Source: Isurus oxyrinchus
Taxonomy: Eukaryota
Direction of reading: 5' to 3'
Length of the DNA: 64,000 nt
Assembly: GCA_026770705.1 (NCBI GenBank)
Contig: JANJGN010000016.1
Span: 87,668,001-87,732,000 of the forward strand
Shown: piece by piece, positions 9,317 to 57,164 of the stretch
Layout: every line of letters begins with the position of its first letter
Numbering within the stretch: the first letter of the stretch is position 1
Program-made: the position numbers and the translations under genes
Notes under the pieces: generated by a model
The model's database searches: none
Told to the model about the DNA's origin: nothing
Seen by the model: only the letters and a program-made list of their open reading frames with translations

Positions 9317-9325
9317 GAGGCAATA

Positions 9326-34400: not shown

Positions 34401-37400
34401 AATGTTTGAAGTGGTAGAGTGGCAGACAAGTGGGTGAGGGGGTAGTGTGTCAGGTAAGTCGGTGAGCGGCTAGCGTGTCATGTTAGTGGGTAAGGGTATA
34501 GTGTGTCAGGTAATTGGGCGAGGGGGCAGTGTATCAGGTGAGGTGGATGAGGGGGTAGATTGTCAGGCTGGTGAGTGAGGGTGTGGGGCGGCAGGCAAGT
34601 GGGTGAGGGGGTAGTGTGGCAGGCAAGTGAGTGATGGTCTAAGGTGGCAGGAATGTGGTTCAGTGGGGTAGGGCGGCAGGCAAGTGGGTGAGGGGGTAGA
34701 ATGGCAGGTAAGTGGGTGAGGGGTTGTGTGTCAGGTAAGTGGGTGAGGGGGTAGAATGGCAGGTAAGTGGGTGAGGGGTTCTGTGTCAGGTAAGTGGGTG
34801 AGGTGTGTCAGGTAAGTGGTTGAGTAAGTAGGATTGCAGGTAAGTGGTTGAGGGGGTAGTGGGTCTGGAATTGCCTGAGGGGGGTAGGGTGTCAGGCAAG
34901 TGGGTGAGGGGATAGAGTGTCAGGTAATTGTGTGAGGGGGCAGAGTGTCAGGCAAGGGGCGAGGGGGTAGGTTGTCAGGAACTAAGTTGAGGGGGTAGTG
35001 TGTCAGGCATTTGGTTGTGGAGTTAGGGTGTCAGTCGATTGGTTGAGGCGTTAGAGTGGCAGGCAAGTGTGTGTGTTGGTAGATTGGCTGGCAAGTGGGT
35101 GAGTGGGTAGGGTGTCAGGCAATAGGGTGAGGGGTTAGTGTGGCAGGTATGTGGGTGTGGGGGTAAGGTGTCAGGCAATAGGTGAGGGGGTACAGTGTCA
35201 TGCAAGTGGGTGAGGTTGTAGAGTGGCATGTAAGTGGGTGAGTGGGTAGGGTGTCAAGCAATAGGGTGAGGGGGTATTGTGGCAGTCTAGTGGGTAAAGG
35301 GGTTGAGTGTTAAGCAAGTGGGCGAGGTGATAGAATGTTAGGTAATTGGGTGAGGGGGGTAGAGTGGCAGGTAATTGGGTGAGGGTGTAGGGTGGCAGAT
35401 AAGTTGGTGAGGGGGTAGGGTGGCAGGTAAGTGGGTGAGGTGTTTGAGTGGACGGTAAGTGGGCGAGGGGGTTGAGTGGAAGGTAAGTGGGTGAGATGAT
35501 AGGGTGGCAGGCAAGTGGAGAGTGTCAGGGTGAGGGTGTAGGGTGCCAGGCAAATGGGTGAGTACTTAGGATGTCATTTGATTGCGTGGGGGGATCGAGT
35601 GGCAGGCAAGTGGGTGTGGGGTTAGAGTGTTAAACAATCAGGTGAAAGGGTAGAGTGTCAGGCTAGTGGGTGAGGTAGTAGAGTGTCAGGCTAGTGAGTG
35701 AGGGGGGTAGAGTGTCAGGTAAGTGGGTGAGGGGGTAGGTGTCAGGCAATAGGATGAGAGGTTATTGTGGCAGGCAAGTGGGTGAGGGGTTAGAGTGCCA
35801 GCTAAGTGTGTGAGGTGGTAAAGTGTCATGTATGTTGGCCAGGGGGTAGTGTGTCAGGTAAGTCAGTGAGGGGGTTTTGGTGGCAGGCAATTGGCGAGGG
35901 GGTTGATTGTCAGGAACTAAGTTGAGGGGGGTACTGTGTCAGATAAGTGGCTGAGGGGGTATGGTGTCAGGCATTTGGTTGTGGAGTTAGGGTGTCAGTT
36001 GATTGGGTGAGGGGAAAGAGTGGCAGGCAAGTGGTTGAAGGGGTTGAGTGTAAAGCAAATTGGCGAGGTGATAGAGTATCAGGTAAGTGGGTGAGGGGGT
36101 AGAGTGGTGGGTAAGTGGGTGAGGGGTTAGTGTGGCAGGTAAGTGGGTGAGAGGGCAGAGTGTCACTTCAGTTGGTGAGGGGGTAGATGTCAAGTATGTT
36201 TGTGAGGAAGTCGGATGTCAGGGATGTGGGCGAGGGGTTAGATTGTCAGGTAATTAGTTGAGGGGGTAGGGTGGCAGGCAAGTGAGTGAGGGGGTAGGGT
36301 GTGAAGCAATTGGGTGAGGAAGCAGCGTGACAGGCAAGTGGGTGAGGGGGTAGGGTGTCAGGCAAGTGGGTGAGGGGGTAGGGTGTGAAGCAATTGGGTG
36401 AGGAAGCAGCGTGACAGGCAAGTGCGTGAGGGGGTAGTGTGTCAAGTGGGTGAGGGGGTAGGGTGTTAGGTAAGTGGGTGAGGGGGTAGTGCGTCAGGTA
36501 AGTGGGTGAGGGGGGGTACAGTGCCAGACAAGTGGAATAGGGGTTGGACTGTCAGGTAAGTGAGTGAGGTGGTAAGGTGGCAGGCAAGTGGGTGAGGAAG
36601 TTGGGTGTCGGGTAAGTGGATGAGGGGGTTTTGGTGGCAGGCAAGTGGGTGAGGGGTTATTGTGGCAGGCAAGTAGGGTAGGGAGTTATGTGCCAGGTAA
36701 GTGTGTGAGGTGGTAGAGTGTCAGGTAAGTAGTTGAGTGAGTAGGATGGCAGGCTAGTGGTTGAGGGGGTAGTGGGTCAGGAAGTGTCTGAGGGGGTAGG
36801 GTTTCAGGCAAGTGGGTGAGGGGATAGAGTGTCAGGTAATTGTGTGAGGAGGCGGAGTGTCAGGCAAATGGGCGAGGGGGTAGATTGTCAGGAACTAAGG
36901 TGTGGGGGTAGAGCATCAGGCATTTTGTTGTGGAGTTAGGGTGTCAGTCGATTGGGTGATGTGATAGAGTGGCAGGCATGTGTGTGTGATGGTAGTTTGG
37001 CAGGCAAGTGGGTGAGTGGGAAGGGTGTCATGCAATAGGTTGAGGGGGTATTGTGGCAGGCAAGTGGGTGAAGGGGTTGAGTGTAAAGCAAATGGGCGAG
37101 GTAATAGAGTGTCAGATAAGTGGGTGAGGGGGTAGAGTGGCAAGTAATTGTTTGAGGGGGTAGGGTGGCAGGTAAGTGGGTGAGGGGTTTGAGTGGAAGG
37201 TAAGTGGGTGAGGGGATAGGGTGTCAAGCAACTGGGTGAGGGTGTAAAGTGTCAGGTAAGTGGGTGAGGGTGTAGAGTGTCAGATAATTTGGTTAGGGGA
37301 TACGGTGGCAGGCATGTGGGTGTGAGTGTAGGGTGGCAAGCAAGTGGGCGAGGGGGTAAGTTGGCAAGCAAGTGGGTGAGGGAGTAGAGTGGCTGTCAAG

Positions 37401-39060
37401 TGGTTCAACGGGTAGTGTGTCAGGTAAGTGGGTGAGAGGGTAGGGTGGCATCCAAGTGGGTGAAGGGGTAGTGTGTCAGGTAAGTGGGTGAGGGGTTAGG
37501 GTATTAGGTAAGTGCGTGATGGGGGTACTGTGCCAGACAATTGGGATAGGGGTTAGACTGTCAGGTAAGTGAGTGAGGGGGTAGGGTGGCAGGCAATTGG
37601 GTGAGGGGATTGGGTGGCAGGTAAGTGGGCAAGGGGGTTTTGGTGGCAGGCAGGTGGGTGAGGGGTTATTGTGGCAGGCAAGTGGGGTAGGTGGTAGTGT
37701 GTCAGGTATTTGTGTGAGGTGGTAGAGGGTCAGGTAAGTGCTTGAGTGGGTAGGATGACAGTCAGTAGTTAAGGGGTTACTGGGTCAGGAAGTGATTGAG
37801 GGATTAGGGTGTCAGGCAAGTGGGTGAGGGGATATAGTGTCAGGTAATTGTGTGAGGGAGCAGAGGGTCAGGTAAATGGGTCAGGGTTAGAGTGGCAGGC
37901 AAGTTGGTGAGTGGGTGGGGTGGCAGGCAAGTTGGTGAGGGGGGTAGTGTGTCAGGTAATTGGATGAGGGGGTAGGGGTCAGGCAATTGGCGAGGGGGTT
38001 GATTGTCAGGAACTAAGTTGAGGGGGGTACTGTGTCAGATCAGTGGGTGAGGGGGTATGGTGTCAGGCATTTGGTTCTTTAGTTAGGGTGTCAATCAATT
38101 GGGTGAGGGGGTAGAGTGGCAGGCAAGTTGTGTGGTGGTAGATTGGCAGGCAAGTGGGTGAGTGGGTAGGGTGTCAGGCAATAGGCTGAGGGGGTAGAGT
38201 GTCAAGCAAGTGGGTGAGGTGATAGAGTGGCTGGTAAGTGGGTGAAGGGCTAGGGTGGCAGGTAATTTGGCCAGGGGGTAGGATGGCAGGCAAGTGGGTG
38301 AGTGGGTGGAATGGCAAATATGTGGGTGAGTGGGCAGGGTGTTAGACAAGTGTGCGAGCGGGTAGATGGTCAGGTGAAGAGGGTAGGATGTCAGGTAAGT
38401 GGGTGAGGGGTTAGGGTGTCAGGTAGGTTGGTGAGTGGGTAGAGTGACAGGGTGAGGGTGTAGGGCGGCAGGCATATGGGTGAGTGGGTAGAGTGGCAGC
38501 CAAGTGGGTGAGATGGTATGGTGTCAGGCAATAGGATGAGAGGAAAGTGTGGCAGGTAAGTGGGTGAGGGGATAGAGTGGCAGGTAAGTGGGTGAGGGGA
38601 TAGAGTGGCAGGTAAGTGGGTGAGGGGGTAGAGTGCCAGGGAATTGGGTGAGGTAGTAGTGTGGGAGGTAAGTGGGGGAGGGGGTATGGTGGCAGGTATG
38701 TTGGCCAGGGGGTAGAGTGGCAGCTAAGTGGGTGAGGGGGCAGAGTGTCACTTCAGTTGGTGAGGGGGTAGATGTCAAGTAAGTTTGTGAGAAAGTCGGG
38801 TATCAGGAAAGTGGGCGAGGGGGTAGGGTGTCAGGCATTTGGGTGAGGGGGTAGGGTGGCAGGCAAGTTAGTGAGGGGGTAGGGTGTCAGGAAACTGGGT
38901 AAGGGGATAGGGTGGTAGGTATGTGGGCGAGAGGATAGGGTGGCAGGTGGGGGGGTGAGTGGATAGGGTGTCAGGCAGGTGGGCTAGGGGGTAGAGCATC
39001 AGGTAATTGGGCAAGTGGTTAGGGTGGCAGGTGGGCGGTGAGTGGATAGGGTGGGTCAGG
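19441..39060. repeat. ~19.6-kb G-rich degenerate satellite, 28-bp unit (GGGTGAGGGGGTAGAGTGTCAGGTAAGT)
   Basis: GTAAGT at 19621 and 19649; 28-bp period in the homogeneous block 30200-30980; internal block duplications (e.g. ~20600-21050 vs ~23850-24260). Confidence 0.93.
22217..22608 (-). mobile_element. Penelope-type 3'-end fragment inserted in the satellite, with a 9-bp TSD
   Basis: CTGGAAAAACTCAGCAGGTCTGGCAGCATC is the reverse complement of the end of the 17958-19106 element; TGGTAAAGT flanks it at 22208-22216 and 22609-22617. Confidence 0.8.
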
Positions 39061-40930: not shown

Positions 40931-41322
40931 GGTCACGGGGAGGTCGTGAATATGGTTTGGGGAATTGTGGTTGTGATGATTTAATCCCAGCAACTTCCAG
41001 ATTCTTTTGTGTTTTTAATCTTGTAAATTCAAGAGATTCAGAATAAAACTGATCATTTTAAAATGATTGATACTTGGCTTTGAAACAAATCTGCTGCAGA
41101 TGTGTCATTGATTGACAGGCCAACCAGCCAATCAGGACAATCACTTGCTGAAATGCAGCCAATCAGCTGATGGGGAGGTGGGACATTTCCAAAGCACTCA
41201 CCAGACAGAGACTGAATATTCTTAATGTTTATTACCTTTTACACATTGACATTTACAGAAAAAAGACTTGAATAAACAGCCCAGCCAGAGGGAGCTGGAG
41301 AAATTCACAGGGAGAATGGAGG

Positions 41323-41328
41323 TTTATT
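41323..41328 (-). promoter_or_regulatory. Candidate polyadenylation signal AATAAA of the light-chain mRNA (second copy at 41228-41233)
   Basis: Plus-strand TTTATT ~500 bp downstream of the C stop codon. Confidence 0.6.
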
Positions 41329-41527
41329 AAAACGCTTGTGGAGATTTTCTCCAGAACATGAGAATCCTGTCCCTTTAAACAGTGACTAAACCTTAAATTG
41401 TAACTGCAGGGTGAGCAGGAAGGGGTCTGGTTTACTGAAGCAGACACTTCGGAGGGTCACATTATTTTTGTACAGCTGACAGTCTTCAGCATCTTAGAGA
41501 GGTTTAACTTAGCATCACGAGATTAAA

Positions 41528-41670
41528 CTGTCCCAACAAACACTCCCAGGGCAGGTACAACATGGGGTTAGAAACAGAGTAAAGCTCCCTCTACACTGTC
41601 CCCATTAAACACTCCCAGGACAGGTACAGCACAGGGTTAGATACAGAGTAAAGATCCCTGTACACTGCAC
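41528..41670. repeat. Two copies of a ~69-bp repeat in the C 3' UTR
   Basis: CTGTCCC..AAACACTCCCAGG.CAGGTACA..GGGTTAGA.ACAGAGTAAAG occurs twice in tandem. Confidence 0.75.
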
Positions 41671-41827
41671 CAATAACGTGCCTTAACCCCTGACCCTCAG
41701 AAGTGTCTCAGAGCTGGTCCTGAGAAGGAAGAGAGTTGTAATTTGGTGCTGACAATGACCTTTGCCCTCCCAGCTCACCCCTGTTCTATTTAAAGTTGTA
41801 TCTCCTCTGTGGACTGTCTCTAACACT

Positions 41828-42156
41828 CTACGCACATTCTGATCTCCTGATGCTCTTGCTGAGGGGAGAGGAGAGGCTCTCGTGGGTGACGACACAGGAG
41901 AAGCTGGCGTTGGACTCCCAGCCGGAGCCAGAGAGGGTCAGCAGGCTGCTGACGCTGTAGGTGCTGTCCGAAGCTCGCAGGTAGTTGCTGGTCTGAACCC
42001 CGTCCGAAATGGCTGCACCGTCCTTCTTCCACTCCACCTTCACCTCATCGGGATAGAAGTGATTGGCAAGGCACACCAGGGTGGCAGTGCCCTTGGTCTT
42101 GACCTCCTCTGGGGAGGGGGGCAGCAGGGTCAGTGTGGGTGGTGACTTCTCTCTGC
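41828..42156 (-). CDS. IGKC: Immunoglobulin kappa-type light-chain constant exon
   Basis: Acceptor CTTCCCTTTCAG|GC, phase 1, matches the J donor. Translation (S)REKSPPTLTLLPPSPEEVKTKGTATLVCLANHFYPDEVKVEWKKDG..FSCVVTHESLSSPLSKSIRRSECA*. C1-set Cys/Trp/Cys and CxVxH present, plus the penultimate Cys for the H-L bond. Confidence 0.95.
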
Positions 42157-42339
42157 CTGAAAGGGAAGAGAAGGAAGTTTAATCACTGTCATTATAATGT
42201 ATTTCAACTTCCCGAATATTAACTGGGATCAAATCTGTGTAAATGTTTAGATGATGTAAAATTCTTATAATCCATCCAGGTGAATTCTTTTAGCCCGAAT
42301 GTAACAAACCCAACAGAGAAGGGGCAGTTTTAGACAATT

Positions 42340-42580
42340 TCAGGGAATGAATCTGGGGAGGTAGAAGGTGTATCAGTGGGAGAGTATTTGGCTAATAGTG
42401 CTCATAATTCAGTTAGATTTAGAGCAGTTATGGAAAAGGATAAAGATAGACCAAGTGTAAAAGTTATAAATTAGGGAAAGGCCAATTTATCTAAGCTGCG
42501 ATTTGCCGAAATGGACAGGAAACAGCAACATGAAGGAAAATCAGTGTCAAAGCAGTGGGAGGTTTTCATGGAGAATTGTG
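42340..42580 (+). mobile_element. CR1 ORF2 fragment (endonuclease-RT linker) in the J-C intron
   Basis: Degenerate EGVSVGEYLANSAHNSVRF..KVIN*GKAN. Confidence 0.55.
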
Positions 42581-42689
42581 AAATATTGGATGGGATAAAA
42601 ATAGTGCGGAATTCTCCCAGATTTGCGCAAAATGCAACGGCGGGTGGGAGAAAGATCGTTTTACATCCCCTGTGCCCTTGCCACTCTCA

Positions 42690-43200
42690 GTCTTTCCTCC
42701 AAGCAGTGTTCAACATGGAGGGGCAATGATTCTTCAACTGAGGGAGGGGGTACGTGGTAATCAGGAGGAGGTTTCCTTCCCTGTGTTTGACCTGATGCCA
42801 TGAGACTTCATGGGGTCCGGAGTCAATTTTGAGGACTCCCAGAGCAACTCCCCACTGACTGTATGCCACTGTGTTGCCACCTGTGCTGGGTCTGACCTGC
42901 TGGTGGGACAGGACATACCCGGGGATGGTGATGGTGGAGTCTGGGTCATTATCTGTAAAGTATGATTCTGTGAAGATGACTCTGTCAGGCTGTTGTTTGA
43001 CGGGTCTGTGAGACAGTTCTCCCACGTTTGGCACTAGCCTCCAGATGTTAGTAAGAGGGACTTTGCAGGGTCAACGGGGCTGAGATTGCCGTTGTTGTTT
43101 CCGGTGCCTAGGTAGATACCGGGTGGTCAGTCCAGTTTCATTCCTTTTTTGTGACTTTGTAGAAGTTTCTTACAACTGAATGGCGGCTGGGCCACTTCAG
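42690..43200 (-). mobile_element. Non-LTR retrotransposon APE endonuclease fragment
   Basis: ORF 42687-43034: ELSHRPVKQQPDRVIFTESY..IPGY..GG..LLITTYP. Confidence 0.75.
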
Positions 43201-43234
43201 AGGGCAGTTAAGAGGCAACACATTGCTGTGTGGC

Positions 43235-44220
43235 ACACAGCAACACCTGGAAAATTGCCCAGGTATGTCCTGTACACAAAAAGCAGGACAAATCCAACCT
43301 GGCCAATTACCGCCCCATCAGTCTACTCTCCATCATCAGTAAGTGATGTAAGGGGTCATCAACTGTGCTATCAGGTGGCACTTGCTCAGCAATAACCAGC
43401 TCACTAACGCCCAGTTTGGGTTCTGCCAGGGCCACTCAGCTCCTGACCTCATTACAGCCTCAGTTCAGACATGGACAGTGGAGCTGAACTCCCGAGGTGA
43501 GGAGAGAGTGACTGTCGTAGACATCAAGGCTGCATTTGACTGAGTGTGGTGTCAAGGACCCGAGCAAAACTGGAGTCAGAGGGAATCGGGGGAAAACTCT
43601 TTGTGGGTTGGAGTCATACCTAGCAGAAAGGAAGATGGTTGTGGTTGTTGGAGGTCAGTCATCTCAGCTCCAGGACATCACTGCAGGAGTTCCTCAGGGT
43701 AGTGTCCTCAGCCCAACCATCTACAGCTGTTTCATCAATGACCTTCCTTCCATCATAAGGTCAGAAGTCAGTGTTTTCGCTGAAGATTGCATAATGTTCA
43801 GCACCTCAGATACTGGAGCAGTCCCTGTACAAATGCAGCAAGACCTGGACAATATCCAGGCTTGGGCTGACAAGTATCAAGTAACATACATGCCACACAA
43901 GTGCCAGGCAATGACCATTTCCAACAAGAGGGAACCCAACCATCGCCCCTTGATGTTCAATGGCATTACCATCACTGAATCCTCCACTATCAATGTCCTG
44001 GGGGTTACCATTGAGCAGAAACTGAAGTGGACTAGCCATATAAATACTGTGGCTACAAGAGCAGGTCAGAGGCTAGGAATCATGTGACAAGTAACTCACC
44101 TCCTGACTCTCCAAAGCCTGTCCACCATCTACAAAGCACAAGTCAGGAATGTGTTGGAGTACTCTCCACTTGCCTGGATGAGTGCATCTCCAACAACACT
44201 GAAGAAGCTGGACACTGTAT
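43235..44220 (+). mobile_element. Non-LTR retrotransposon RT fragment
   Basis: WKIAQVCPVHKK..NYRPISLL, QFGF, DIKAAFD, GVPQGSVLSP, CFINDLP, FAED. Confidence 0.85.
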
Positions 44221-44499
44221 TTAAACTGCAGCCGTGCGCACACTTCTCAATGCTTGCAGCCCGGGGCTGCTCCGGTGAAGACTTGGCCCCAAAAACCAAG
44301 CAGAGTGCAGCCCCCGATTCAGTGACACATTCCTGGGATGCCTTCTGGACACTGTGGAGGCCCATCCTGATGTCCTCTAACCCCGCTCTGGCCACAGGAG
44401 GGCCATTAGTTTCAGATTTTTGGCTGTCTCACCATATTATTCCCACTGCTCACCATGACACCTGACACCAATGGGGCCGGAAAATTCTGGCCAAAGTGA

Positions 44500-44805
44500 G
44501 AGAGGAAATATTAATTGTTGGAAAATATTCTGAGGGAAATTTTAAACATCTTTGAGAAAGATACGACCAAGGACAGTCAACATGGACTTGTTAAGGGAAG
44601 GCCGTGTCTGACTAAGTTGCTTGAATTTTTTGAGGAGGTAACAAGGAGGGTTGATGAGGGGACCGAGTTTGATGTGGTCTATTTGGATTTTAGCAAGACT
44701 TCTGACAAGGTTCCACATGACAGACTGGTCAGAAAATTAAAAATTCATGGGATCCCAGGGAAAGGGGCAAGTTGTGTTTCAAATTGGTTGAGTGGCAGGA
44801 GGTAA
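44500..44805 (+). mobile_element. CR1 RT fragment
   Basis: SQHGLVKGRPCLTKLLEFFEEVT..DVVYLDFSKTSDKVPH. Confidence 0.8.
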
Positions 44806-45094
44806 ATGTTTGATGTTAAGCTGGTTAAATCATATTGGGCTGTTACTTAGACATTTGTAAAGAGGGTTACCACAAATTCAGCACTGAAATGGTTAATAGT
44901 AAGAGTGTTTAAAGACTCAGTGTCCCTCTAAGACACTGTTAAGCTGTCAGGAAGCTCTGACTATTGATCAGCCTGTCCGGGGGAAACAGGTTCACATTAA
45001 CAATCCTCAGATCACACACACATCGAGAGAACTTTATCCCAGAATGTTGGAGCACACTTGGATCAACCCACTTCAGAAAGGATTCAGATTGGGT

Positions 45095-46575
45095 GTCATA
45101 GAATAAAATGATAGAAAGTTTCTGGCACAGAAAGAGACCACTCGGCCCATCACGTCTGTGCCACTGAAATACGAGCCGTCCGGCCGAATCCCACTTTCCA
45201 GCATTTGGTCTGTCGTCCTCCAGGTTAAGGCTCTTGAGGTTCGTATCCAGACACCTTTTAAATGGGTTGATGGTTCCTGCCTCTGTGACCCTTTCAGGCC
45301 GTGAGTTCCAGAGCCTCATCTCCCATCTAAACTTTCTCCCAGTCACTATAAATTTAACTAATGATTTATCCAGTTCCAGCATAACCTCCTTGCTCTATAC
45401 CTCGGCTAATGATTGAAAGGATTCCATGTTCCTTCTTAACCACCTTATCGACCTGTTCTGCTACCTTCAGGAGTCTGGACATTCACCCCAAGGTCCCTCA
45501 CTTCCTCTACACCTCTCAGTATCTTCCCATTTATTGTTTATTCCTTTGCTTTGTTTGACCTCCTCAGATGCATCACCTCACACTTCTCTGGGGAGAATTC
45601 CATTTGCCACTTTTCTGTCCACCTGACCAGTCCATTGATATCTTCCTGCAGCCTACAACAATCCTCCTTGTTATCTACCATGCAGCCAATTTTTGTGTCG
45701 CCTGTAAACTCCTTGATCAATCCCCTACATTTATGTCCAAATCGTTAATATACACATAAAAAGCAGGGGACCTAGGCCTGAGCCCTGCAGAAACACACTG
45801 GAAACAGCCTTCCAGTCACAAAAACACCATCAATAATTACCCTTTGTTCCCAGCCACTGAGCTAATTTTGTATCCAACGGGCCCCATTCCCATGGACCCC
45901 ATTGGCTTTTATTTTATTAACCAGTCTGCCATGTGGAACCTTCTCAAAAACCTTGCTAAATTCCATGTAGATAACATCAACTACACTACCCTCATCAATC
46001 CTCCTTGTTACTTCCTCAAAAAAGATCAACAGATTAGTCAGACATGACCTTCCCTTATCAAATCCATGCTGACTGTCCTGGATTAATCTGTGCCTTTCTA
46101 AGTGATAGTTTATCCTGCCCATCAGAATTGATTCCAATTATTTGACCACCAACGAGGACACAATGACTGGCCTGTAATTATTTGGCTTAAACAAAGGTGC
46201 AACATTATCAGACCTCCAATCCTCCGGCACCTCACCTGTATCTAGTGAGGATTGGAAAATAAGGGTCAGACCCTTCGCAATTTCCTCCCTGGTTTCTGAT
46301 AACAGCCTGGGGCACATTTCACTCTCAAGGATGCTAATCCCCCTCCTACTTCCTCTCTCCCTATGTTTATCACATCCAATATTTCACACTCCTCCTCCAT
46401 AACAACAATGTCTAATTGTTCCCTTTCTTTTGTGAAGACAGACGCAAAGTATTCATTCAGAACCATACCCACATCCTCCCCCTCCTCACATAGGTTACCT
46501 TTTTGGTCTTTTATGGGCCCTACTCGCCCTTAGTTATCCTCTTACTCTAAATGTATTGAGAAAACAGCTTTGGGT
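45095..46575 (-). mobile_element. CR1 LINE, internally deleted ORF2 and 3' UTR
   Basis: LNEYFASVFTKE; QHGFDKGRSCLTNL; FTGDTKIG..WQMEF; LWNSRPERV. Confidence 0.85.
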
Positions 46576-46734
46576 GTAGAAGGTTCTAGATTTCATTTCA
46601 AACCTTGCCGGCCAGCACTGGGGTGACGTTAATGGTGAGGCTTCAGTTAGTCTCAGAGTCTGGGGGTCAGACAGGGTCAGTGCGAGGTCAATGGCACCTC
46701 ACAGGGTCAGCATCAGGAATCTCCAACTTCAAAG

Positions 46735-47132
46735 AAAGGCTTGCATTTCAATGGCACCTATAACCACCTTAGGATGTCCCAGATTGTTCCACAGCCAACT
46801 GTGCACAGCAAGATCCCAGATAGCGGATTCACAATGACCAGATAATCAGATGTGTAGTGATGCAGATTGAGGGATAAATATTGTCCAGGAAATCCGGGGG
46901 AACTCTCCTGCTCTTCTTCTCACAGCGCCGTGGGATATTTGACATCCCCCTGAGAGGGCAGACCTCAGTTTGTCTCAGCTGAAAGACGGCTCCTCTGATA
47001 GTGCTGCCCTCCCTCAATACTGCACTGGAGTCTCAGCCTGGATTATGTGCTCAAGTCTCTGGAATGGGATTTGAACCCACAACATTGTGACTCTGAGGGG
47101 AGAGTGCTACCCATTGAGGCACGGCTGACACC
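46735..47132 (-). mobile_element. tRNA-derived SINE (SacSINE1/Deu-like)
   Basis: Minus strand starts TCAGCCGTGCCTCAATGGGTAGCAC (A box-like), then GGGTTCAAATCCC (B box). Family name is from recall, not from a search. Confidence 0.65.
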
Positions 47133-47838
47133 TCATGGTCCAATAGCCTGTCATGTTCACCCTCCCGCCTCACACTTGGAGGAATGAGCCCACTTGGGGA
47201 GGGTGGAGCTGTTCCCCAGTCAGAGACAGTGTCTTCAGGAGAGAGATGGAGAGCAGATTCCGGGAGGCCTGGAGTCTAGAGGGTGACATTTAAACATTCG
47301 GGGGAAACGGAGAGTCTCCCCAATACCCTGGAACACTGAAGCCACTGGATTGTGGGCCCTGCTCTACCTGTTTGTCATCAGAAATTTGCCAAGAGATAAC
47401 CAGGGAGTGGAGAGAGCAGAGTTCAAGCTGGGGGAGGTGGGACCTCGGTGTCTCACTGTGCTGGTGCTGTGATCAGTTATATCAGAGACTGTGAGAGGGA
47501 GCCGGAGCTCATATCAAACTCTGCCCGTGTCTGTCACACTGAGACTGACAGGAGTCTAGTGAGTGATTTCAGTCCATGGTGCAGCAATGTCAGCACAGTC
47601 TGCAAACGTCCAGATCTCCTCTAGACGGTGGGTAAAAGTTGGTTATTTCTATCTTGCTGCTTAAAGGGGGGAATGTAATGAAAGAAATACAGCTGGGCAC
47701 CCTATTATACACAGTGTTGTTCACTGAACCATTTCATTCACTGCAGTTCCTCACTAACACCTTCAACTATTCAGCATTAGTGTTTGAGAAAGTTTCAGTA
47801 TTGAAAAGGTTAATAAGGGAGGATTGGGGTTTACTTAC

Positions 47839-47873
47839 TCAGTCTGAGTTTGGTTCCTTTACCGAACGTAACC
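47839..47873 (-). CDS. IGKJ: Ig kappa-type J segment
   Basis: G GTT ACG TTC GGT AAA GGA ACC AAA CTC AGA CTG A|GTAAGT = VTFGKGTKLRL(S); FGxG motif, consensus donor, adjacent 23-RSS. Confidence 0.95.
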
Positions 47874-47912
47874 CACACTGAGAGCTTCCAGTGCAGGGGC
47901 TGTACAAAAACC
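47874..47912 (+). other. 23-bp-spacer recombination signal sequence of J
   Basis: CACACTG (47874-47880, one mismatch to CACAGTG), 23-bp spacer, ACAAAAACC (47904-47912). Confidence 0.95.
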
Positions 47913-47929
47913 TCAGCTCTCTGCTTCAC

Positions 47930-48300
47930 TCAGTCACTCTCACCCTCTCTCTGTCTCTCACTCACACTCACCTTTAACTCACTCTCACCCTCTCTCTGTC
48001 TCTCACTCACACTCACCTTTAACTCACTCTCACCCTCTCTCTGTCTCTCACTCACACTCACCTTTAACTCACTCTCACCCTCTCTCTGTCTCTCACTCAC
48101 ACTCACCTTTAACTCACTCACACCCTCTCTCTGTCTCTCACTCACACTCACCTTTAACTCACTCTCACCCTCTCTCTGTCTCTCACTCACACTCACCTTT
48201 AACTCACTCTCACCCTCTCTCTGTCTCTCACTCACACTCACCGTTAACTCACTCACACCCTCTCTCTGTCTCTCACTCACACTCACCTTTAACTCTCACT
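47930..48300. repeat. 45-bp CT/CA-rich minisatellite, ~8 copies, V-J interval
   Basis: Unit ACTCACTCTCACCCTCTCTCTGTCTCTCACTCACACTCACCTTTA. Confidence 0.92.
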
Positions 48301-48426
48301 CTTTTCCTCTCTCTTCCTTTCAATGTCTTTTTTTTTGTTCCAAGAGTTGAGAATCCCGATTTTATTTGATAAATCTTTCAGCTGCTCTTCATATGTGGAC
48401 ATGGAGGGTAAGAGGTAAAGTGACCG

Positions 48427-49158
48427 TTATTATATATTATATATAACTGTGGGATGTGTCAGTACAGGAGGTGGGACTGTGTGTCCATTATTATATATTC
48501 TATATAACTGTGGGATGTGTCAGTACAGGAGGTGGGACTGTGTGTCCACTATTATATATTCTATATAACTGTGGGATGTGTCAGTACAGGAGGTGGGACT
48601 GTGTGTCCATTTTTATATATTCTATATAACTGTGGGATGTGTCAGTACAGGTGGTAGGACTGTGTGTCCATTATTATATATTCTATATAACTGTGGGATG
48701 TGTCAGTACAGGAGGTGGGACTGTGTGTCCATTATTATATATTCTATATAACCGTGGGATGTGTCAGTACAGGAGGTGGGACTGTGTGTCCATTATTATA
48801 TATTCTATATAACTGTGGGATGTGTCAGTACAGGAGGTGGGACTGTGTGTCCATTATTATATATTCTATATAACCGTGGGATGTGTCAGTACAGGAGGTG
48901 GTGCTGTGTGTCCATTATTATATATTCTATATAACCGTGGGATGTGTCAGTACAGGAGGTGGGACTGTGTGTCCATTATTATATATTCTATATAACCGTG
49001 GGATGTGTCAGTACAGGAGGTGGGACTGTGTGTCCATTTTTATATATTCTATATAACTGTGGGATGTGTCAGTACAGGAGGTGGGACTGTGTGTCCATCA
49101 TTATTATATATTCTATATAACTGTGGGATGTGTCAGTACAGGAGGTGGTGCTGTGTGT
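48427..49158. repeat. 61-bp minisatellite, ~12 copies, V-J interval
   Basis: Unit TATATAACTGTGGGATGTGTCAGTACAGGAGGTGGGACTGTGTGTCCATTATTATATATTC (starts at 48501 and 48562). Confidence 0.93.
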
Positions 49159-49163
49159 ATTGA

Positions 49164-49191
49164 GGTTTTTGTCAGGCTCTGTATCACTGTG
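49164..49191 (-). other. 12-bp-spacer recombination signal sequence of V (perfect consensus)
   Basis: Minus strand CACAGTG (49191-49185), 12-bp spacer, ACAAAAACC (49172-49164). V-12/J-23 is the kappa arrangement. Confidence 0.97.
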
Positions 49192-49489
49192 TACTGGTAG
49201 CTGTAACCATACTGACAGTAATAATCAGCGACATCCTCATTCTGTACATTGCTGATTGTCAGGGTGTATTGAGTGCCAGATCCACTGCCGGTGAATCGCT
49301 CGGATGTTCCTGTGAATCGAGTTGTTGCCGAATAGATCAGGAGAGTGGGTTTCTGTCCTTCTCGCTGCTGGTACCAACTCACATAGCTGCTGCTAACAGA
49401 CTGACTGGCCGTACAGGTGATGGTGGCGGTCTGGCCCAGGCTCACTGACACCAGGGGAGGCTGTTTCATGGTGATGTCCCCACTGATAC
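49192..49489 (-). CDS. IGKV: Ig kappa-type V exon, germline unrearranged (resembles shark kappa/NS4 type)
   Basis: Acceptor CCCCTCAG|GT; (G)[98 protein letters not shown]; open frame with Cys, WYQQ and YYC. Confidence 0.96.
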
Positions 49490-49675
49490 CTGAGGGGTAA
49501 TAGAGAAACAGAGTGAAGTAAGAACTGTCACACAAAGAGCCTGTAAAATGAGATATTGTTAGAGACAGTGACCGTTCCTCTGCTTTCAGCATTTTCCCTT
49601 CAATCACAAGTCAGTCGAATTGGCTGGAAATGGAGAGCAGGAAAATATTCACGGTGGAAGGAGAGAGATTTGTAC

Positions 49676-49724
49676 CTGCGATGCAGAATGCCAGAGGCCA
49701 GATCAGCTGGATGGCTGAAATCAT
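49676..49724 (-). CDS. IGKV: Leader (signal peptide) exon of the Ig kappa-type gene
   Basis: ACC ATG ATT TCA..: MISAIQLIWPLAFCIA G|GTACAA; phase-1 donor, 186-bp intron, in frame with V. Confidence 0.9.
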
Positions 49725-49784
49725 GGTGTCTGCTCCTGTCCCTGTGCCTGGTCACTGATAAACTCTCCCTTCACTGGGCTCAGC

Positions 49785-49881
49785 TTTATACAGCTGCAGC
49801 CTGTCAGAGTCTCACTGGCTGTTCCTCAGTATGTAAATGGTATCACCCAGAGAGAACCACGTCAGCACCTTTCACTTCCTC
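49785..49881 (-). promoter_or_regulatory. V promoter: TATA box, E-box, variant octamer, ETS-IRF composite element
   Basis: Minus strand TATAAA 49790-49785, CAGCTG 49791-49796, ATTTACAT 49838-49831, GAGGAAGTGAAA 49881-49870. Confidence 0.75.
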
Positions 49882-49889
49882 TCCATCTT

Positions 49890-52234
49890 TCTCTCTCTAT
49901 TTGTCTCTGTTTCGCAGTCTCCCCCCCCCTCTCTCTCTCTCTGTCTTTGTTCATCTTTCTCTTTCTCTCTTTACTTTTCTCTCTCTCCCTCTCTCATTAC
50001 CTGTCCGTCACTTTCTGTCTCTCTCTCTACCTCTCTCTGTCTCTGTCCGTCACTCTCTCTGTCTCTCTACCTCTCTCTGTCTAAGTCCGTCACTCTATCT
50101 GTCTCTCTACCTCTCTCTGTCTCTGTCTGTCACACTCTGTCTCTCTCTCTCTACCTCTCTGTCAGTCACTCTCTGTCTCTCTCTAGCTCTCTCTCTCTCG
50201 GTCCGTTACTCTCTGTCTCTCTCTCTACCTCTCTCTGTCTCTGTNNNNNNNNNNNNNNNNNNNNNNNNNNNNNNNNNNNNNNNNNNNNNNNNNNNNNNNN
50301 NNNNNNNNNNNNNNNNNNNNNNNNNNNNNNNNNNNNNNNNNNNNNNNNNNNNNNNNNNNNNNNNNNNNNNNNNTCTGTCTCTCCTTGCATCTCCCTGCCT
50401 TTGTCCAGCACTCTATGTCTCTCTCTGTGTCTCCCTGTCTCTGTCCATCACTCTCTGCCATCTCTGTCTCTCTCTGTCCATCACTCTCTGGTCTCTTCCT
50501 CTCTGACTCTCTCTTTCTCTGCCTTTGCCAGTCAGTCTCTGTCTCTCTCTATCTCTCTCATTCTCTGTCCACCACTCTCTGTCACTCCCTGCTTCTCTTA
50601 GTCTCTGTTCATCACTGTCTGTCTCTCATTCCCTACCTCTGTCTGTCTCTGCCGGTCACTCTATGTCTCTCACTCCGTACCTCTGTCTGTCTCTGTCCGT
50701 CACTCTCTGTCTCTCGCTCCCTACCTCTGTCTGTCTCTGTCCGTCACTCTGTCTCTCATTCCCTACCTCTGTCTGTCTCTGTCCGTCACTCTGTCTCTCA
50801 TTCCCTACCTCTGTCTGTCTCTGTCCGTCACTCTGTCTCTCATTCCCTACATCTGTCTGTCTCTGTCCGTCACTCTCAGTATCTCAATGCCTACCTCTGT
50901 CTGTATCTGTCCGTCACTCTCTGTCTCTCTCTCCCTACCTCTGTCAGTCTCTGTCCGTCACTCTCTGTCTCTCTCTCCCTACCTCTGTCTGTATCTGTCC
51001 GTCACTCTCTGTCTCTCTCTCCCTACCTCTGTCTGTCTCTGTCCGTCACTCTCTGTCTCTCACTCCCTACCTCTGTCTGTCTCTGTCCGTCACTCTCTGT
51101 CTCTCTCTCCCTACCTCTGTCTGTCTCTGTCCGTCACTCTCTGTCTCTCTCTCCCTACCTCTGTCTGTCTCTGTCCGTCACTCTCTGTCTCTCTCTCCCT
51201 ACCTCTGTCTGTCTCTGTCCGTCACTCTCTGTCTCTCTCTCCTTACCTCTGTCTGTCTCTGTCCGTCACTCTCTGTCTCTCACTCCCTACCTTTGTCTGT
51301 CTCTGTCCGTCACTCTCTGTCTCTCTCCCTACCTCTGTCTGTCTCTGTCCGTCACTCTCTCTCTCTCCCTACCTCTGTCTGTCTCTGTCCGTCACTCTCT
51401 GTCTCTCTCTCCCTACCTCTGTCTGTCTCTGTCCGTCACTCTCTGTCTCTCTCTCCCTACCTCTGTCTGTCTCTGTCCGTCACTCTCTGTCTCTCTCTCC
51501 CTACCTCTGTCTGTCTCTGTCCGTCACTCTCTGTCTCTCTCTCCCTACCTCTGTCTGTCTCTGTCCGTCACTCTCTGTCTCTCTCTCCTTACCTCTGTCT
51601 GTCTCTGTCCGTCACTCTCTGTCTCTCTCTCCCTACCTCTGTCTGTCTCTGTCCATCAATCTCTGTCTCTCACTCCCTACCTCTGTCTGTCTCTGTCCAT
51701 CAATCTCTGTCTCTCTCTCCCTACCTCTGTCTGTCTCTGTCCGTCACTCTCTGTCTCTCACTCCCTACCTCTGTCTGTCTCTGTCCGTCACTCTCTGTCT
51801 CTCTCTCCCTACCTCTGTCTGTCTCTGTCCGTCACTCTGTCTCTCACTCCCTAACTCTGTCTGTCTCTGTCCATCAATCTCTGTCTCTCTCTCCCTACCT
51901 CTGTCTGTCTCTGTCCGTCACTCTCTGTCTCTCTCTCCCTACCTCTGTCTGTCTCTGTCCATCAATCTCTGTCTCTCACTCCCTACNNNNNNNNNNNNNN
52001 NNNNNNNNNNNNNNNNNNNNNNNNNNNNNNNNNNNNNNNNNNNNNNNNNNNNNNNNNNNNNNNNNNNNNNNNNNNNNNNNNNNNNNNNNNNNNNNNNNNN
52101 NNNNNNNNNNNNNNNNNNNNNNNNNNNNNNNNNNNNNNNNNNNNNNNNATCACCCAAAACCCCAACTCTATCTCTGTATTTCTGTTGTTCTCCCTCTCTG
52201 CTTTTTCACGGTCTTGTATCGTTTTCTCTCTCTC
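49890..52234. repeat. CT-rich simple repeat grading into a ~44-bp minisatellite, with assembly gaps
   Basis: Unit CCCTACCTCTGTCTGTCTCTGTCCGTCACTCTCTGTCTCTCTCT; N runs at 50245-50373, 51987-52148 and 52235-52401. Confidence 0.9.
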
Positions 52235-53071
52235 NNNNNNNNNNNNNNNNNNNNNNNNNNNNNNNNNNNNNNNNNNNNNNNNNNNNNNNNNNNNNNNNNN
52301 NNNNNNNNNNNNNNNNNNNNNNNNNNNNNNNNNNNNNNNNNNNNNNNNNNNNNNNNNNNNNNNNNNNNNNNNNNNNNNNNNNNNNNNNNNNNNNNNNNNN
52401 NCCCTCACCACCTTTTCCATCTCTCTCTGCCTCCCCATCTCTCTCTCCCACCCTCCATCGTTCTGGAATTCTCTAACTGACTCTATAACAGGCGTTATTA
52501 CTGGAGGTTGGAACACTTTGAGTCCTGGTGCAGCAGTTAAATGTTCCCTCTCTCTCTCACTCAGTCTCACAGTCTCCACCTCGCTCTCTCTTTCCCACAG
52601 TCTCCCAGGGGGAATGCAGTGAAATGAAGGGTAAAACTCCCTCTGCTCTGCCCCACCAATGGATGTGAACCCTTGACCCCAGAAGCATGTCTTCTCCTGG
52701 AGTAAGGCCCGAATCCCCACACTGACCATGCTTTGGCCTCTCTCAGTCAGACTGACAGATTATTGTCAAATTAAGGGCAGTTCTGTGCTGTTGGCCAATT
52801 CTCACTGGGGACTGGTTTGGACACAAACCTCATTTCATGAAGGCCCAGCAGAGAGAGGAGACCCTCACCCCATCAGTGTGAGCTGGAGGGACAGGGCAGA
52901 TTCTGACCCACTGAGCCATCCTGTCCACTCAGAACATGCTCGAATCCCTTGCCTCTCCCTCCCTACCATGGTCAGGCTCCGGGTCAGTGTGTTTTACTGG
53001 GATGAGGGGTGGACGATCACACATTTACAACAGAAAGGAACTGTCCTCCACATCGACCACGGTGTCCATGT

Positions 53072-53220
53072 CCCACTGGACCCTCCAATAGGGACCAGTA
53101 AACATGGGCCTCCTTCCCACTGGACCCTCCAATAGAGACCAGTAAACATGGGCCTCCTTCCCACTGGACCCTCCAATAGAGACCAGTAAACATGGCCCTC
53201 TTTCCCATTGACCCTCCAAG
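53072..53220. repeat. 44-bp tandem repeat, ~3.3 copies
   Basis: CCCACTGGACCCTCCAATAG recurs at 53072, 53116 and 53160. Confidence 0.85.
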
Positions 53221-53249
53221 TGGCTGAGTTTCAAACACCACATCGTCTC

Positions 53250-54724
53250 CATCACGGCTGCTGGACATTCTTAATGGGAGAGGGTGAATTGCCAGAGTTT
53301 GTGGTTCACATTGTTTCCAATGACATTGTTCGAAAGAGGGATGAGGCACTGAAAGCAAATTTCACAGAGCTAAGTGAGTCATTAAAACGCAAGAGTTCAG
53401 AGGGAGTAATCTCCCGGTTAGTGCCAGTGCCATGAGCTAGTGAGCATAGAGAACGGAGGCTGGAGCTGATGAGTACGTGGCTGGAGAGACAGTGTAGGAG
53501 GGAGGGGTTCAGTTTCCTGGGACATTGGGACTGGTTCTACAGGAGGTGGGACCTGTACAAGCCGGATGGTTTGCACCTCAATGGGCCTGGGTCCAATATC
53601 CTTGGGGGAGGTTTGCTCGTGCTGTTGGGGGGGTTTAAACTCGTTTAGCAGGGGGATGGGAACCTGAGGGTCGACTCAGATGGGGCAACATCAGAGCTGT
53701 AATGGAGGGCAGAAAATCAGAGTGAGTCTGGAAGACAGAGGAAACAAAAGATAGAAAATAACAAAGAGAGTTGGACTTGCGACATACGACATACAGAGGA
53801 GCTGAGGGCACAGATAGCAGTGTGATATTATAGCGATTACAGAAACATGACTGAAAGAGGGACAGGAATAGCAGCTCAACATTCCTGGTTACAGGGTTGT
53901 TAGGTGTTTAAAAAGGGAGCGAGGGATAGACCGAATAATTACAGACCAGTCAGTCCATAGTGACTGTAGTCTTAGGGAATGTAGTGACTGTAGCTTTAAG
54001 ACTTATTGTGCTGTGTAGTATCATGTGACAGTGTGAATGAATCAGTCTAAGCGCGGGGAACCTTAGTGGGACAGGGGGTGGGGAGGTGGTAATTTTTTGT
54101 GTTTAGTTGTGGATGTGATGGAAAAGTGTAACGGCTGCTGAAGCCCTGCAAATAAAGTTCACTCTTTCTTATGAGAAACCTGTCTGGAAAATCAAGTCTG
54201 TAAACAGCCTGAGCTCAGTCGTAGGCAAATAATTGGAATAAATTCTGCAGACAGGATAAACTGGCACTTAGAAAGGCAGTGATTAACCAAGGACATCAGC
54301 ATGGATTTGATGAGGGAAGGTCATGCCTGAATAATCTGTTGAATTTTTTGAGGAAGCAACAAGGAGGATTGATGAGGGTAGAGTAGTCACTGTGGTCTAC
54401 ATGGATTTAAACAAGGTTGTTGAAATATAAGAGCATGGGGCTTATTCTGGAACTGTATAAATCATTAGTTAAATTTATAGTGATTGGGAGAAAGATTAGA
54501 TGGGAGATGAGGCTCTGGAAATCACGGCCTGAAAGGGTCACAGAGGCAGGAACACTCAAACCATTTAAAAGGTGTCTGGATATGAACCTCAAGAGCCTTA
54601 ACCTGGAGGACTACAGACCAAATGCTGGAAAGTGGGATTCGGCCAGACGGCTCGTATTTCAGTGGCACAGACATGATGGGCCGAGTGGTCTCTTTCTGTG
54701 CCAGAAACTTTCTATGATTTTATG
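53250..54724 (+). mobile_element. CR1 LINE with multiple internal deletions (ORF1 esterase, EN/RT pieces, 3' UTR)
   Basis: VVHIVSND..GVISRLVPVP and YKPDGLHLN; NYRPVS; QHGF..GRSCL; LWKSRPERV; 3' tail at ~54720. Confidence 0.8.
53956..54207 (+). mobile_element. ~250-bp insertion, possible solo LTR, splitting the CR1 NYRPVS|LSSVVGK motif
   Basis: CR1 sequence resumes after the insert. The insert contains AATAAA and ends ..AACA; its 5' TG and TSD are ambiguous. Confidence 0.45.
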
Positions 54725-55974
54725 TGGGCATCTCATTTCCATCCCCACAATATTGTCCGTCTCGACACTACATCAGCCCCTAGACCACAGAAACCCTTTT
54801 CCCTGCTTGTCTTGCCTCCTGACTGCATTATTCTAATGTCCTCTCCTGGCTTCTTTCATCCACACTCCATAACCCCCAAATTGCCCAAAGTGCAGAGTTC
54901 CATACACTGTCCCACACCAAGTGTTGTTCCAGCACTAGCACTGACATCACTGACCTGCCTGGCCTCACTGACCTATTACCCATGAACTCACTGACCTGTT
55001 ACCCCTCACCTTATTGACCTGCTCCACTATGGGGACAGAGATGGGGAGTGGGTCTCACTGGGTAACTCACAGACAGGATGGGCTGAATGGCCTCCTTCTG
55101 TGCTGTAAGATTCTAGGTAGTGGACACGGTTCACAGTTTTCTCCCGTGTCAGTAACAAACATCCAGCTGCTCTGAGCTCCTTCTTTCACTTCCTCTCTTG
55201 GTTACGTTTCAGTCTTGCGATCGGACAATCTTTGCAGTTATTTTTTACACTGGGGGTTTCTGCTGTGGTCTGAATCTGTAATAATAACTGTCCAATCAGT
55301 GAAAAGAACAGCAGCTAAGAGCAGTCAGGACTGAGGAGGCAGGCTCACTGGGAAACACATTGGGAAGATCAAAGCCATCGTCTTCAGCTCCCGATACAAA
55401 CTCCATCCCTCTCCCTGAGCACTGTCTGCTGCTGAACCAGACTCTTCACAACCTTGGCCTCATCTTTCACCCCGATCTGACCCCCAAATCCTCCACATCA
55501 CAAAGATCAGCCACTTGCCCCGATAACTGGAATGTGCTGACTACACAGAAGGAGAGGTTTAACAAACAGGGAGGAGAAGAGTCAAAGACTTGGGGAGAGT
55601 AGAGACGGATGAGGGAAGGGACAGATAGGTGACTGACACAATTCAATGCAGAGGAGTTTGAGATGATGGGTTTGAGGGGGAAAAGTAGTGAAAAGATGGT
55701 GAAGGATGTGTAGAAGCAGAGAGAGCTTGGCTCCAATTCCATCATTCCCTGAAAGTGGAAGTGCAGATTGATAAAGCCTTGAATTAAAATGATCAACAGC
55801 GTTAGGAATGGACAAACTACAGAGAGTAGAAATGGGAAATCCAAACAGAGAATTCACTAACCATTCAGCAGCCTGTGGGGAATGAAAGTGTGGGTTGTAG
55901 TTCAAACTGCAGTTAATAAACAGGTGAATCTGTAGAGAATACAGGACGATGGGGAGAGAGCAGGCGAGTGGGAT

Positions 55975-56940: not shown

Positions 56941-57164
56941 GATCCGAGTGCACAGCTAGCACAGACACAAGGGGCTGAATGGCCTCCTCCTGTGCTATAG
57001 GCTTATCAGGCTCCTTGACTGAAACATATGGATGGGAACAGGAGGTGGGCTGGAGCTTAAACAATGAGTTAAATGTAGACAGAGTGTCATTAGTGGGTAA
57101 TGTACAGTGTACATTGTGTCCATGAGCCTCTCGAAAAGATGTCTTTCTCTTTTTCCCTTTTCAG

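Follow-up and report, generated by a model that had tools for sequence, protein, structure and literature searches.

Gene organization of the locus

The window, i.e. the whole 64,000-nt stretch of Isurus oxyrinchus DNA that was analysed, contained one immunoglobulin light-chain gene on the minus strand (Table 1). The leader (L), V with its 12-RSS, J with its 23-RSS and C were all present, intact and in phase at the minus-strand positions given by the original prediction. V and J were separate, with a deletion interval of 1318 nt (47874–49191) between the two signals, in line with the claim that the gene is split and not germline-joined. It had also been claimed that these were the sole V, J and C within 64 kb, and a six-frame motif scan found no others in the window; the nearest sister genes were located 109 kb and 125 kb off, outside it. 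These two RSSs were the only ones with ≤2 mismatches in the 64 kb, and 30 base shuffles gave a mean of 0.

The V-J spacer consisted mostly of two tandem arrays, whose copy numbers differed from paralog to paralog. The promoter and both RSSs of this copy had the majority sequence of the 25-copy family described below. No perfect octamer was found in the whole window, and octamer, kappa-B and Ets-IRF motifs were absent from the J-C intron by simple pattern scan. The transcript end at 41213 falls beyond the interval 41828..49881 of the original prediction.

Table 1. Features of the light-chain gene and its flanking spacers (positions in the window)
Feature	Position	Strand	Remarks
Tail-to-tail spacer satellites	15..39032	.	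24-bp (15-2349), 45-bp (9327-17957) and 28-bp (19442-39032) arrays
3' UTR	41213..41827	-	AATAAA at 41233-41228; poly(A) tail at 41213
C kappa exon	41828..42156	-	108 codons, terminal Cys, TAG stop; Pfam C1-set 3e-25
J-C intron, long form	42157..47838	-	5682 nt
Decayed reverse-transcriptase fragment in J-C intron	43521-44084	+	RVT_1 E 2e-15, passes Pfam cut-off
Decayed reverse-transcriptase fragment in J-C intron	44515-44802	+	RVT_1 E 9e-4, below Pfam cut-off
Decayed reverse-transcriptase fragment in J-C intron	45865-46137	-	RVT_1 E 1e-5, below Pfam cut-off
J segment	47839..47873	-	FGKG motif, phase 1, GTAAGT donor
23-RSS of J	47874..47912	+	Facing V; heptamer CACACTG, 1 mismatch; nonamer perfect
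45-bp tandem array, 8 copies	47934..48295	.	Precedes J signal
61-bp tandem array, 12 copies	48420..49158	.	Begins right after V nonamer
12-RSS of V	49164..49191	-	Heptamer and nonamer both perfect
V kappa exon	49192..49489	-	98 open codons; both Cys and FR2 Trp kept; Pfam V-set 2e-17
Leader intron	49490..49675	-	186 nt; same length in 25/25 copies
Leader exon	49676..49724	-	49 nt (16 codons + 1 nt), phase 1, GT donor
TATA box	49785..49790	-	Kept in 25/25 copies
Octamer-like promoter motif	49831..49838	-	ATTTACAT; 1 mismatch to the consensus Ig octamer; in 25/25 V-bearing copies
Head-to-head spacer	50411..64000	.	44-bp, 55-bp and 36-bp arrays; another head-to-head spacer has the same layout

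An array of 25 genes on alternating strands

The cluster had been described as isolated among satellites. This was not the case: it was found to be one of 25 genes in 2.7 Mb (C16:85.78–88.48 Mb), and the flanking satellites recurred, with their order unchanged, in the gaps separating other copies. The array comprised 25 V, 25 J, 25 C, 25 V-RSSs and 25 J-RSSs over 26 positions, with one unit lacking C and one lacking L-V-J. Each cluster had a single V, a single J and a single C, all in the same orientation; 24 of the 25 V sequences were distinct, and the own J of each V was located at 553–6070 nt. None of the 25 copies was germline-joined. No extra or fused RSS (a signal-joint scar) was observed in the array; every RSS was at its own segment, indicating that the array holds no germline signal joint.

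In the assembly, the strand switched at 21 of 25 neighbour steps (permutation p = 0.0009) and stayed the same at the other 4. The J-C intron was 5.68 kb in 5/5 minus copies and 2.8–3.1 kb in 6/6 plus copies of 11 consecutive units, but over the whole array the long form occurred in 7/12 minus and 2/11 plus copies, so that its tie to the strand was loose. The J-C intron tree, distorted by the alignment of different insertions, served for these long and short classes only.

The 24-bp and 28-bp arrays, together with the unique blocks between them, recurred in two other tail-to-tail spacers. Three tail-to-tail and two head-to-head spacers were collinear, with unique blocks 95–99.7% identical and kept in order and direction. 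Tandem repeats made up 75–88% of four among the five spacers examined, and array lengths varied between units. The satellites are part of a unit of two genes that is itself repeated.

Isotype of the gene

In the C-domain tree, which had been proposed as a check of the kappa assignment, the C domain grouped at 100/100 with 8 named shark and chimaera chains, apart from 7 other light-chain C domains of the same genome; the non-kappa rows of this tree were same-genome genes with isotype labels assigned by us, and the set held no named lambda or sigma reference. The V domain grouped with named shark kappa chains at 90/96, which falls under the star threshold of the tool (95 for bootstrap), and its sister was a V domain from coelacanth (92/93). 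The kappa isotype was thereby upheld. The V-12/J-23 arrangement had been taken as its mark, but three non-kappa light-chain genes of the same genome also carried a V 12-RSS; the arrangement is necessary and not diagnostic, and the isotype therefore rests on the tree.

Three V-12 genes with a long CDR2 (L142–L144) formed a separate branch of the V tree (97/90), and we read them as sigma-type, aided by what PMC5192425 says on CDR2 length. Membership in sigma or sigma-2 was rejected, the sigma-type genes being on that separate branch, and membership in lambda (NS3/type II), a type with germline-joined VJ or V-23/J-12 signals, was rejected as well, the gene being split, V-12/J-23 and outside the lambda-type tree rows. 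The lambda-type gene L137 of the same genome is likewise split. The gene studied here is a kappa V-J-C minicluster of the known NS4/type III kind, intact and split.

Transcripts and V-J joints

Expression was inspected in public assembled contigs guessed to be RNA, which probably came from other individuals and may include DNA (none was recorded as RNA; 14 of the 22 rows were guessed RNA holders, and 2 more were guessed to be RNA). The L-V splice joint, skipping 186 nt, and the J-C splice joint were both observed in 4/4 runs examined. The poly(A) end at 41213 was seen in run X3 as 25 T's loose before that position, and X3 contigs at the 3' end showed 0 differences over 258–265 nt.

Among the joints listed, which left out 83 others, all nine distinct V-J joints kept the reading frame and showed both trimmed ends and added bases. 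Run X1 contained the joints 47871–49194 (depth 38.9) and 47871–49193 (depth 2.8). Two V-J joints ended in the CDR3 of this copy, which the paralog L066 shares, and the contigs carried the CDR3 ends of several different array copies. In run X4, a 49-nt contig over 49362–49410 matched with 0 differences at depth 34 a sequence present in 1/25 copies, the unique CDR1 of this copy, and much of the V-J spacer was at depth 0. No contig linked this CDR1 to a V-J joint. J segments were nearly identical between copies, and the added bases in the listed joints were ambiguous as to cluster.

Spliced, polyadenylated and in-frame rearranged contigs stood for the family; for the single copy the unique CDR1 was seen, with CDR3 joints common to L066. 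The claim of a functional, RAG-dependent cluster that deletes 47874–49191 is most likely correct, given the in-frame joints at the predicted ends. Three points are inferred: RAG carries out the recombination, V and J come from one and the same cluster, and those joints stem from this copy and from neither L066 nor an allele.

A one-codon deletion in FR1

From Gln to Cys, FR1 spanned 17 residues in 25/25 array copies, one codon short of the 18 residues in 42/44 parsed database relatives (14/58 did not parse). Among the paralogs, the motif changed step by step from the ancestral kappa form, less one codon, to the derived form. Contigs of organism D kept the ancestral FR1 motif (one loose end), and those of organism B ended short of the site. 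The short FR1 aligned without gaps to solved chains that we take to be lambda-type, and with a one-residue gap to those that we take to be kappa-type. The loss of one codon likely gives a lambda-style start to the V domain.

V modelled by AlphaFold in the absence of J (pLDDT 87.6, 20 rows) had a normal V fold, and Foldseek matched it to V domains of antibody light chains with a TM near 0.9. Neither result tells whether the first strand is of the kappa or the lambda kind. Lambda V domains and the array genes were alike in the 17-residue stretch and a QPP-type motif but unlike elsewhere: V tree, C tree, V-12 signal and split state were all those of kappa. A lambda donor for the short FR1 was rejected at an identity of 31–38/66 nt to six lambda/sigma-type genes of the same genome. 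The likeness to lambda is convergent, and the family-wide deletion offers a natural experiment on the kappa/lambda framework difference.

CDR blocks and gene conversion

This copy had a CDR1 unique among the 25, a CDR2 common to L065 and a CDR3 common to L066, and CDR3 blocks recurred with different partners among copies. When informative sites outside the CDRs were compared in 325 pairs, 48% were incompatible; 200 clonal simulations gave 9% (sd 6, max 33). Judged from these sequence patterns, CDR codon blocks were likely reshuffled among copies by gene conversion. A PHI-like test of incompatibility between neighbouring sites did not reach significance (p = 0.07), on an alignment with two poorly aligned intron ends. 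For the CDRs, pN was 0.167 and pS 0.151 (ratio 1.11), with a bootstrap interval spanning equality; positive selection on the CDRs was thus not established.

Interpretation and alternatives

The gene is very probably a working split kappa minicluster in an amplified, conversion-homogenised array. Cleavage by RAG at the two signals that face each other (12 and 23) would remove 1.3 kb and bring V to the J of the same cluster, and the V-J exon so formed would then be spliced to leader and C. The array of 26 positions probably expanded as an inverted pair of clusters, together with its satellite spacers, was amplified in tandem, and gene conversion likely homogenises it; conversion would have fixed the FR1 deletion in every copy while CDR codon blocks were reshuffled among copies.

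It is improbable that the copy is intact but silent or little used, with the transcripts coming from paralogs (L066 for CDR3) or alleles. The CDR3 end identical in L066 and the CDR2 identical in L065 would allow for this, as would contigs that may include DNA and do not phase CDR1 with a joint; but the promoter and both signals match the family majority, and the X4 contig covered the unique CDR1 while much of the V-J spacer had no depth. Copy number and alternation could also be artefacts of collapsed or mis-oriented repeats in a satellite-rich region, an idea encouraged by the tandem-repeat content of the spacers and by the two incomplete units. The 24 distinct V sequences, the unequal spacer arrays and the CDR3 ends of several copies in RNA-like contigs make it very improbable. 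The gapless, lambda-length FR1 suggested that the gene is a kappa/lambda chimera whose short FR1 was copied from a lambda gene by conversion, or that it is not kappa; this is largely refuted and extremely unlikely in view of the low identity to the six same-genome genes, the stepwise series of the paralogs, and the placement of both V and C in kappa groups.

We consider it unlikely that the array is partly one locus, in which V joins the J of the opposed neighbour ∼120–127 kb off by inversion. The alternating strands permit the geometry, and such joining was demonstrated in zebrafish (PMC3014032). Against it, every V has its own J about 0.55–6 kb away, all 25 V-RSSs and 25 J-RSSs are at their own segments with the germline signal joint absent, and tandem copying of an inverted pair accounts for the alternation without function; nurse shark IgH was joined within the minilocus in all but possibly 1/97 cases (PMC2435157). 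Rather doubtful, too, is a view of the array as a shared system instead of independent cassettes, which would combine inversion to a neighbour's J (an editing route that sharks are said to lack), germline conversion dealing CDR blocks (a source of the combinatorial diversity that is out of somatic reach for one-V/one-J clusters) and, in this lineage, a conversion sweep giving the whole kappa repertoire a lambda-type first strand.

Comparison with known light-chain loci

Descriptions of split kappa miniclusters from nurse and horn shark go back to the 1990s (PMC2193156, PMC5192425), and this gene is a textbook case of that long-known kind. The comparison below draws on PMC2193156, PMC5192425, PMC4279169 and PMC2435157. 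As in nurse shark NS4 and horn shark type III, there is a single V, a single J and a single C, in the same orientation, in a multi-copy family, with trimmed and extended V-J joints. The leader intron, at 186 nt, has the length of the one in NS4 (PMC2193156), and both PstI sites of NS4 are present, one preceding the leader and one following J. The C domain was 83% identical to nurse shark chain P0011 and 83–88% to horn shark kappa. In contrast, the V-J spacer is 1318 nt (553–6070 nt across copies) versus 502–524 nt in nurse shark, exceeding the typical ∼500 nt and enlarged by the two tandem arrays; germline-joined copies number 0/25 versus about 10%; there are 25 copies versus 50–70; and FR1 is one residue shorter in all 25.

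Cluster order and orientation are known here, unlike in the nurse and horn shark miniclusters, and the linkage of shark clusters is described as poorly known in PMC2435157 and PMC12227049. PMC3014032 attributes the absence of joining by inversion in sharks to a shared polarity. The zebrafish IgL clusters it describes resemble the array in having several V-J-C clusters on one chromosome with V opposed to some J; in zebrafish V is inverted inside the cluster, whereas here the clusters are colinear and only neighbouring clusters are opposed. Literature listings, drawn mostly from outside the subscription journals and without supplements (e.g. the coordinate table of PMC12227049, which may bear on orientation), turned up no paper that describes, for shark kappa, the alternation of the array, shuffled CDRs or the lost FR1 codon. 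The value of the locus is that of a mapped example, a complete 25-gene array with alternating strands, V-J spacers of 0.55 to 6 kb and copy-specific CDRs. It makes three questions open to study with long reads: do V and J ever join across clusters, does the use of a cluster depend on the length of its V-J spacer, and is the V repertoire built by conversion in the germline?

Five Cetorhinus maximus models annotated as 'immunoglobulin kappa light chain-like' (P0003–P0007) had an identical leader and C domains 94–98% identical to this gene. P0005 had the same CDR1, CDR2 start and FR3 Tyr as this copy. All five models had a full-length FR1, unlike the array genes.

Structure and isotype of the cluster

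The minus-strand elements were re-found at the positions of the original prediction, and its deletion interval of 1318 nt was also correct. All reading frames were unbroken and the splice phases were compatible. The V 12-RSS and the J 23-RSS were the only recombination signals with ≤2 mismatches in the whole window, and 30 base shuffles of the window yielded none at this threshold.

Elements of the light-chain cluster (window positions)
Element	Position	Length	Strand	Remark
Octamer-like motif	49838		minus	
TATA box	49790		minus	
Leader exon		49 nt	minus	
Leader intron		186 nt	minus	
V exon	49489-49192	298 nt	minus	V-set domain by Pfam
12-RSS 3' of V			minus	perfect; order V then 12-RSS
V-J spacer		1.3 kb		between 12-RSS and 23-RSS
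23-RSS 5' of J				one heptamer mismatch
J segment		35 nt	minus	
J-C intron		5682 nt	minus	
C exon	ends at 41828	329 nt	minus	C1-set domain by Pfam

The nearest named proteins were shark kappa chains, with C identities of 94–98% to five Cetorhinus models, 83–88% to horn shark and 83% to one nurse shark chain. In trees that included other light-chain genes of the same genome, without named lambda or sigma references, the C domain grouped with named shark kappa chains (support 100/100) and so did the V domain (90/96), which bore out the predicted kappa identity. This copy also shared with nurse shark NS4, as described in PMC2193156, the leader intron of 186 nt and a pair of PstI landmarks; NS4/type III is kappa according to PMC5985310 and PMC5192425. 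The V-12 arrangement had also been taken as a kappa mark. It is not decisive by itself, because three non-kappa genes of this genome (L142–L144, sigma-2-like and sigma-like by our reading) carried a V 12-RSS too; their J signals were below the scan threshold.

With high confidence, the cluster is genuine and is a shark kappa minicluster of the ordinary sort, most likely a functional one. Split kappa miniclusters, their copy numbers and within-cluster joining are already described in PMC2193156, PMC2435157, PMC4279169 and PMC5192425. The value of the locus rests instead on how the array is laid out, on the shuffling of CDRs in the germline and on an FR1 of lambda length throughout the family. 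No paper on an alternating array, CDR shuffling or an FR1 deletion was among those listed by literature searches that covered few subscription journals.

Organization of the kappa array

Rather than being isolated, as originally supposed, the gene was one of 25 V genes in an array. DNA, protein and pattern searches concordantly placed 25 each of the V genes, C exons, V signals and J signals of the kappa family at C16:85.78-88.48 Mb (C16 being a contig of this genome), in 26 positions comprising 24 complete units, L056 (without C) and L058 (C without L, V and J). None of the array copies was germline-joined, whereas ∼10% are in nurse shark. Stop codons were absent from V (25/25) and C (25/25), and one J had lost its FG motif.

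The strand changed at 21 of the 25 steps between neighbours (permutation p = 0.0009). Among the spacers compared (3 of 10 tail-to-tail, 2 head-to-head), those of each kind had collinear unique blocks, 95–99.7% identical, with the same satellites, at very different lengths, between them. In the 11 consecutive units round this gene, the J-C intron was long in every minus copy and short in every plus copy; across the entire array, intron length was loosely associated with strand. The simplest reading is that the array would have grown by tandem amplification of an inverted cluster pair together with its spacers, a unit to which the window satellites belong. PMC3014032 argues from the shared polarity of segments that sharks lack inversional joining; given the strand alternation, that argument no longer applies between neighbouring clusters, which does not in itself demonstrate inversional joins. 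A search of the assembly with V and J signals revealed no signal-joint scar.

The V-J spacer ranged from 553 to 6070 nt, as set by two variable tandem arrays, compared with 502–524 nt in nurse shark. Both tandem arrays were expanded in L076 (C16:88.47 Mb; spacer of 6070 nt), a natural test of the effect of distance on joining. L051 (C16:85.79 Mb), at the array end, had the most diverged V (85–90%), an FG to FT change in J and an altered J heptamer, and is probably non-functional. L056 (C16:86.30 Mb, minus) retained an intact L-V-J; its short J-C intron continued into a 24-bp satellite, and the 17 kb of sequence examined 3' of J contained no C exon. L058 (C16:86.71 Mb, plus), which lacked L, V and J, consisted of the C exon and part of a long J-C intron, linked via 44-bp/14-bp repeats to the upstream flank.

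CDR shuffling among the copies

Divergence between copies was 1–2% in the promoter, intron and FR3, against 18–28% among CDR2 and CDR3 variants, whose differences fell mostly in runs of neighbouring bases. Identical CDR3 codon blocks reappeared with different partners, and this copy was itself a patchwork, with its own CDR1, the CDR2 of L065 and the CDR3 of L066. When the CDRs were set aside, 48% of the pairs of informative sites were incompatible with a single tree, versus 9% (maximum 33%) in 200 clonal simulations; a neighbour-based recombination test did not reach significance (p = 0.07). The patchwork and the site conflicts probably arose by short-tract gene conversion. Selection on the CDRs was unsupported, since synonymous differences were as elevated as replacement ones and no replacement excess was found among array copies.

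Tyr replaced Phe in FR3, at what we take to be Kabat position 71, in this V (window 49192-49489), L057, L066 and L067. All four had a CDR1 of non-modal length, and the Tyr occurred in 0 of 19 modal-length copies; the association could stem from support of the loop or from common descent.

One-codon deletion in FR1

In all 25 V genes, 17 residues separated the FR1 Gln from the first Cys. Among 58 stored proteins, 44 were parsable and 42 of these had 18 residues, leaving only this V and one 299-base fragment, almost the same in sequence as the array family, with 17. The codon loss appears recent, because all five Cetorhinus models and another organism with contig data (organism D) retain 18 residues. 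The lambda-type genes of this genome also had 17, and the array FR1 aligned without gaps to solved chains presumed to be lambda-type and with one gap to those presumed to be kappa-type. A kappa/lambda chimera was nevertheless rejected: the paralogs grade from a motif that differs from the ancestral one by the lost codon to a derived QPP motif, and the FR1 was only about half identical to that of the lambda-type genes at the DNA level. The lambda length is thus convergent. A leader-V contig from presumed RNA crossed the deletion site with 0 differences, and the shortened V is predicted by modelling to fold as a normal V domain.

The database fragment (P0044, 89 residues) came from a contig filed under Salmonella enterica; it was 92% identical to this V and is a shark sequence contaminating a bacterial record.

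Expression and V-J joining

Expression was assessed in contigs from public runs presumed to be RNA, none being recorded as such. The leader and J-C introns were precisely skipped in 4/4 runs, and the 3' region was matched with 0 differences up to a poly(A) tail at 41213. Nine distinct V-J joints, with trimmed ends and added bases, were seen among those listed, beyond which lay 83 more joints of any kind; 9/9 kept the reading frame, which a blunt join would also preserve. RAG would be the cutter at the two signals, as in established V(D)J biology. In run X1, two joints extended to 49194 and 49193, through the CDR3 of this copy, which is also present in one paralog, L066. A 49-nt contig of run X4 matched the CDR1 of this copy, found in 1 of 25 copies. 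Use of exactly this copy is likely rather than proven, because short contigs cannot join CDR1 to a V-J joint.

In L053 and L055, Ser replaced the Tyr right before the second Cys, and the major joint of run X2 carried the CDR3 end of these two copies. A two-copy 69-bp repeat in the 3' UTR (window 41527-41667) showed very high contig depth and is evidently a common genomic repeat.

Other light-chain loci

A split cluster with lambda-type signals (L137; C13:57599500-57606800, minus) was observed on another contig of this genome, with a V 23-spacer and a J 12-spacer ∼260 nt apart. Its V, J and C were all open, and it adjoined germline-joined lambda-type genes, with which its V grouped weakly (80/77); its signals had 2–3 mismatches. 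According to PMC5192425 and PMC4279169, every lambda gene so far studied in cartilaginous fishes is germline-joined, and lambda-2 is not listed for these fishes in PMC5985310. L137 may be a shark lambda gene that rearranges, or an ortholog of lambda-2, and is possibly of more interest than the kappa cluster itself.

A sigma-2-like family at 1.5-3.7 Mb of contig C36 had at least 10 related C exons, which lay in mixed orientation; the two genes examined were split, with a V 12-RSS.
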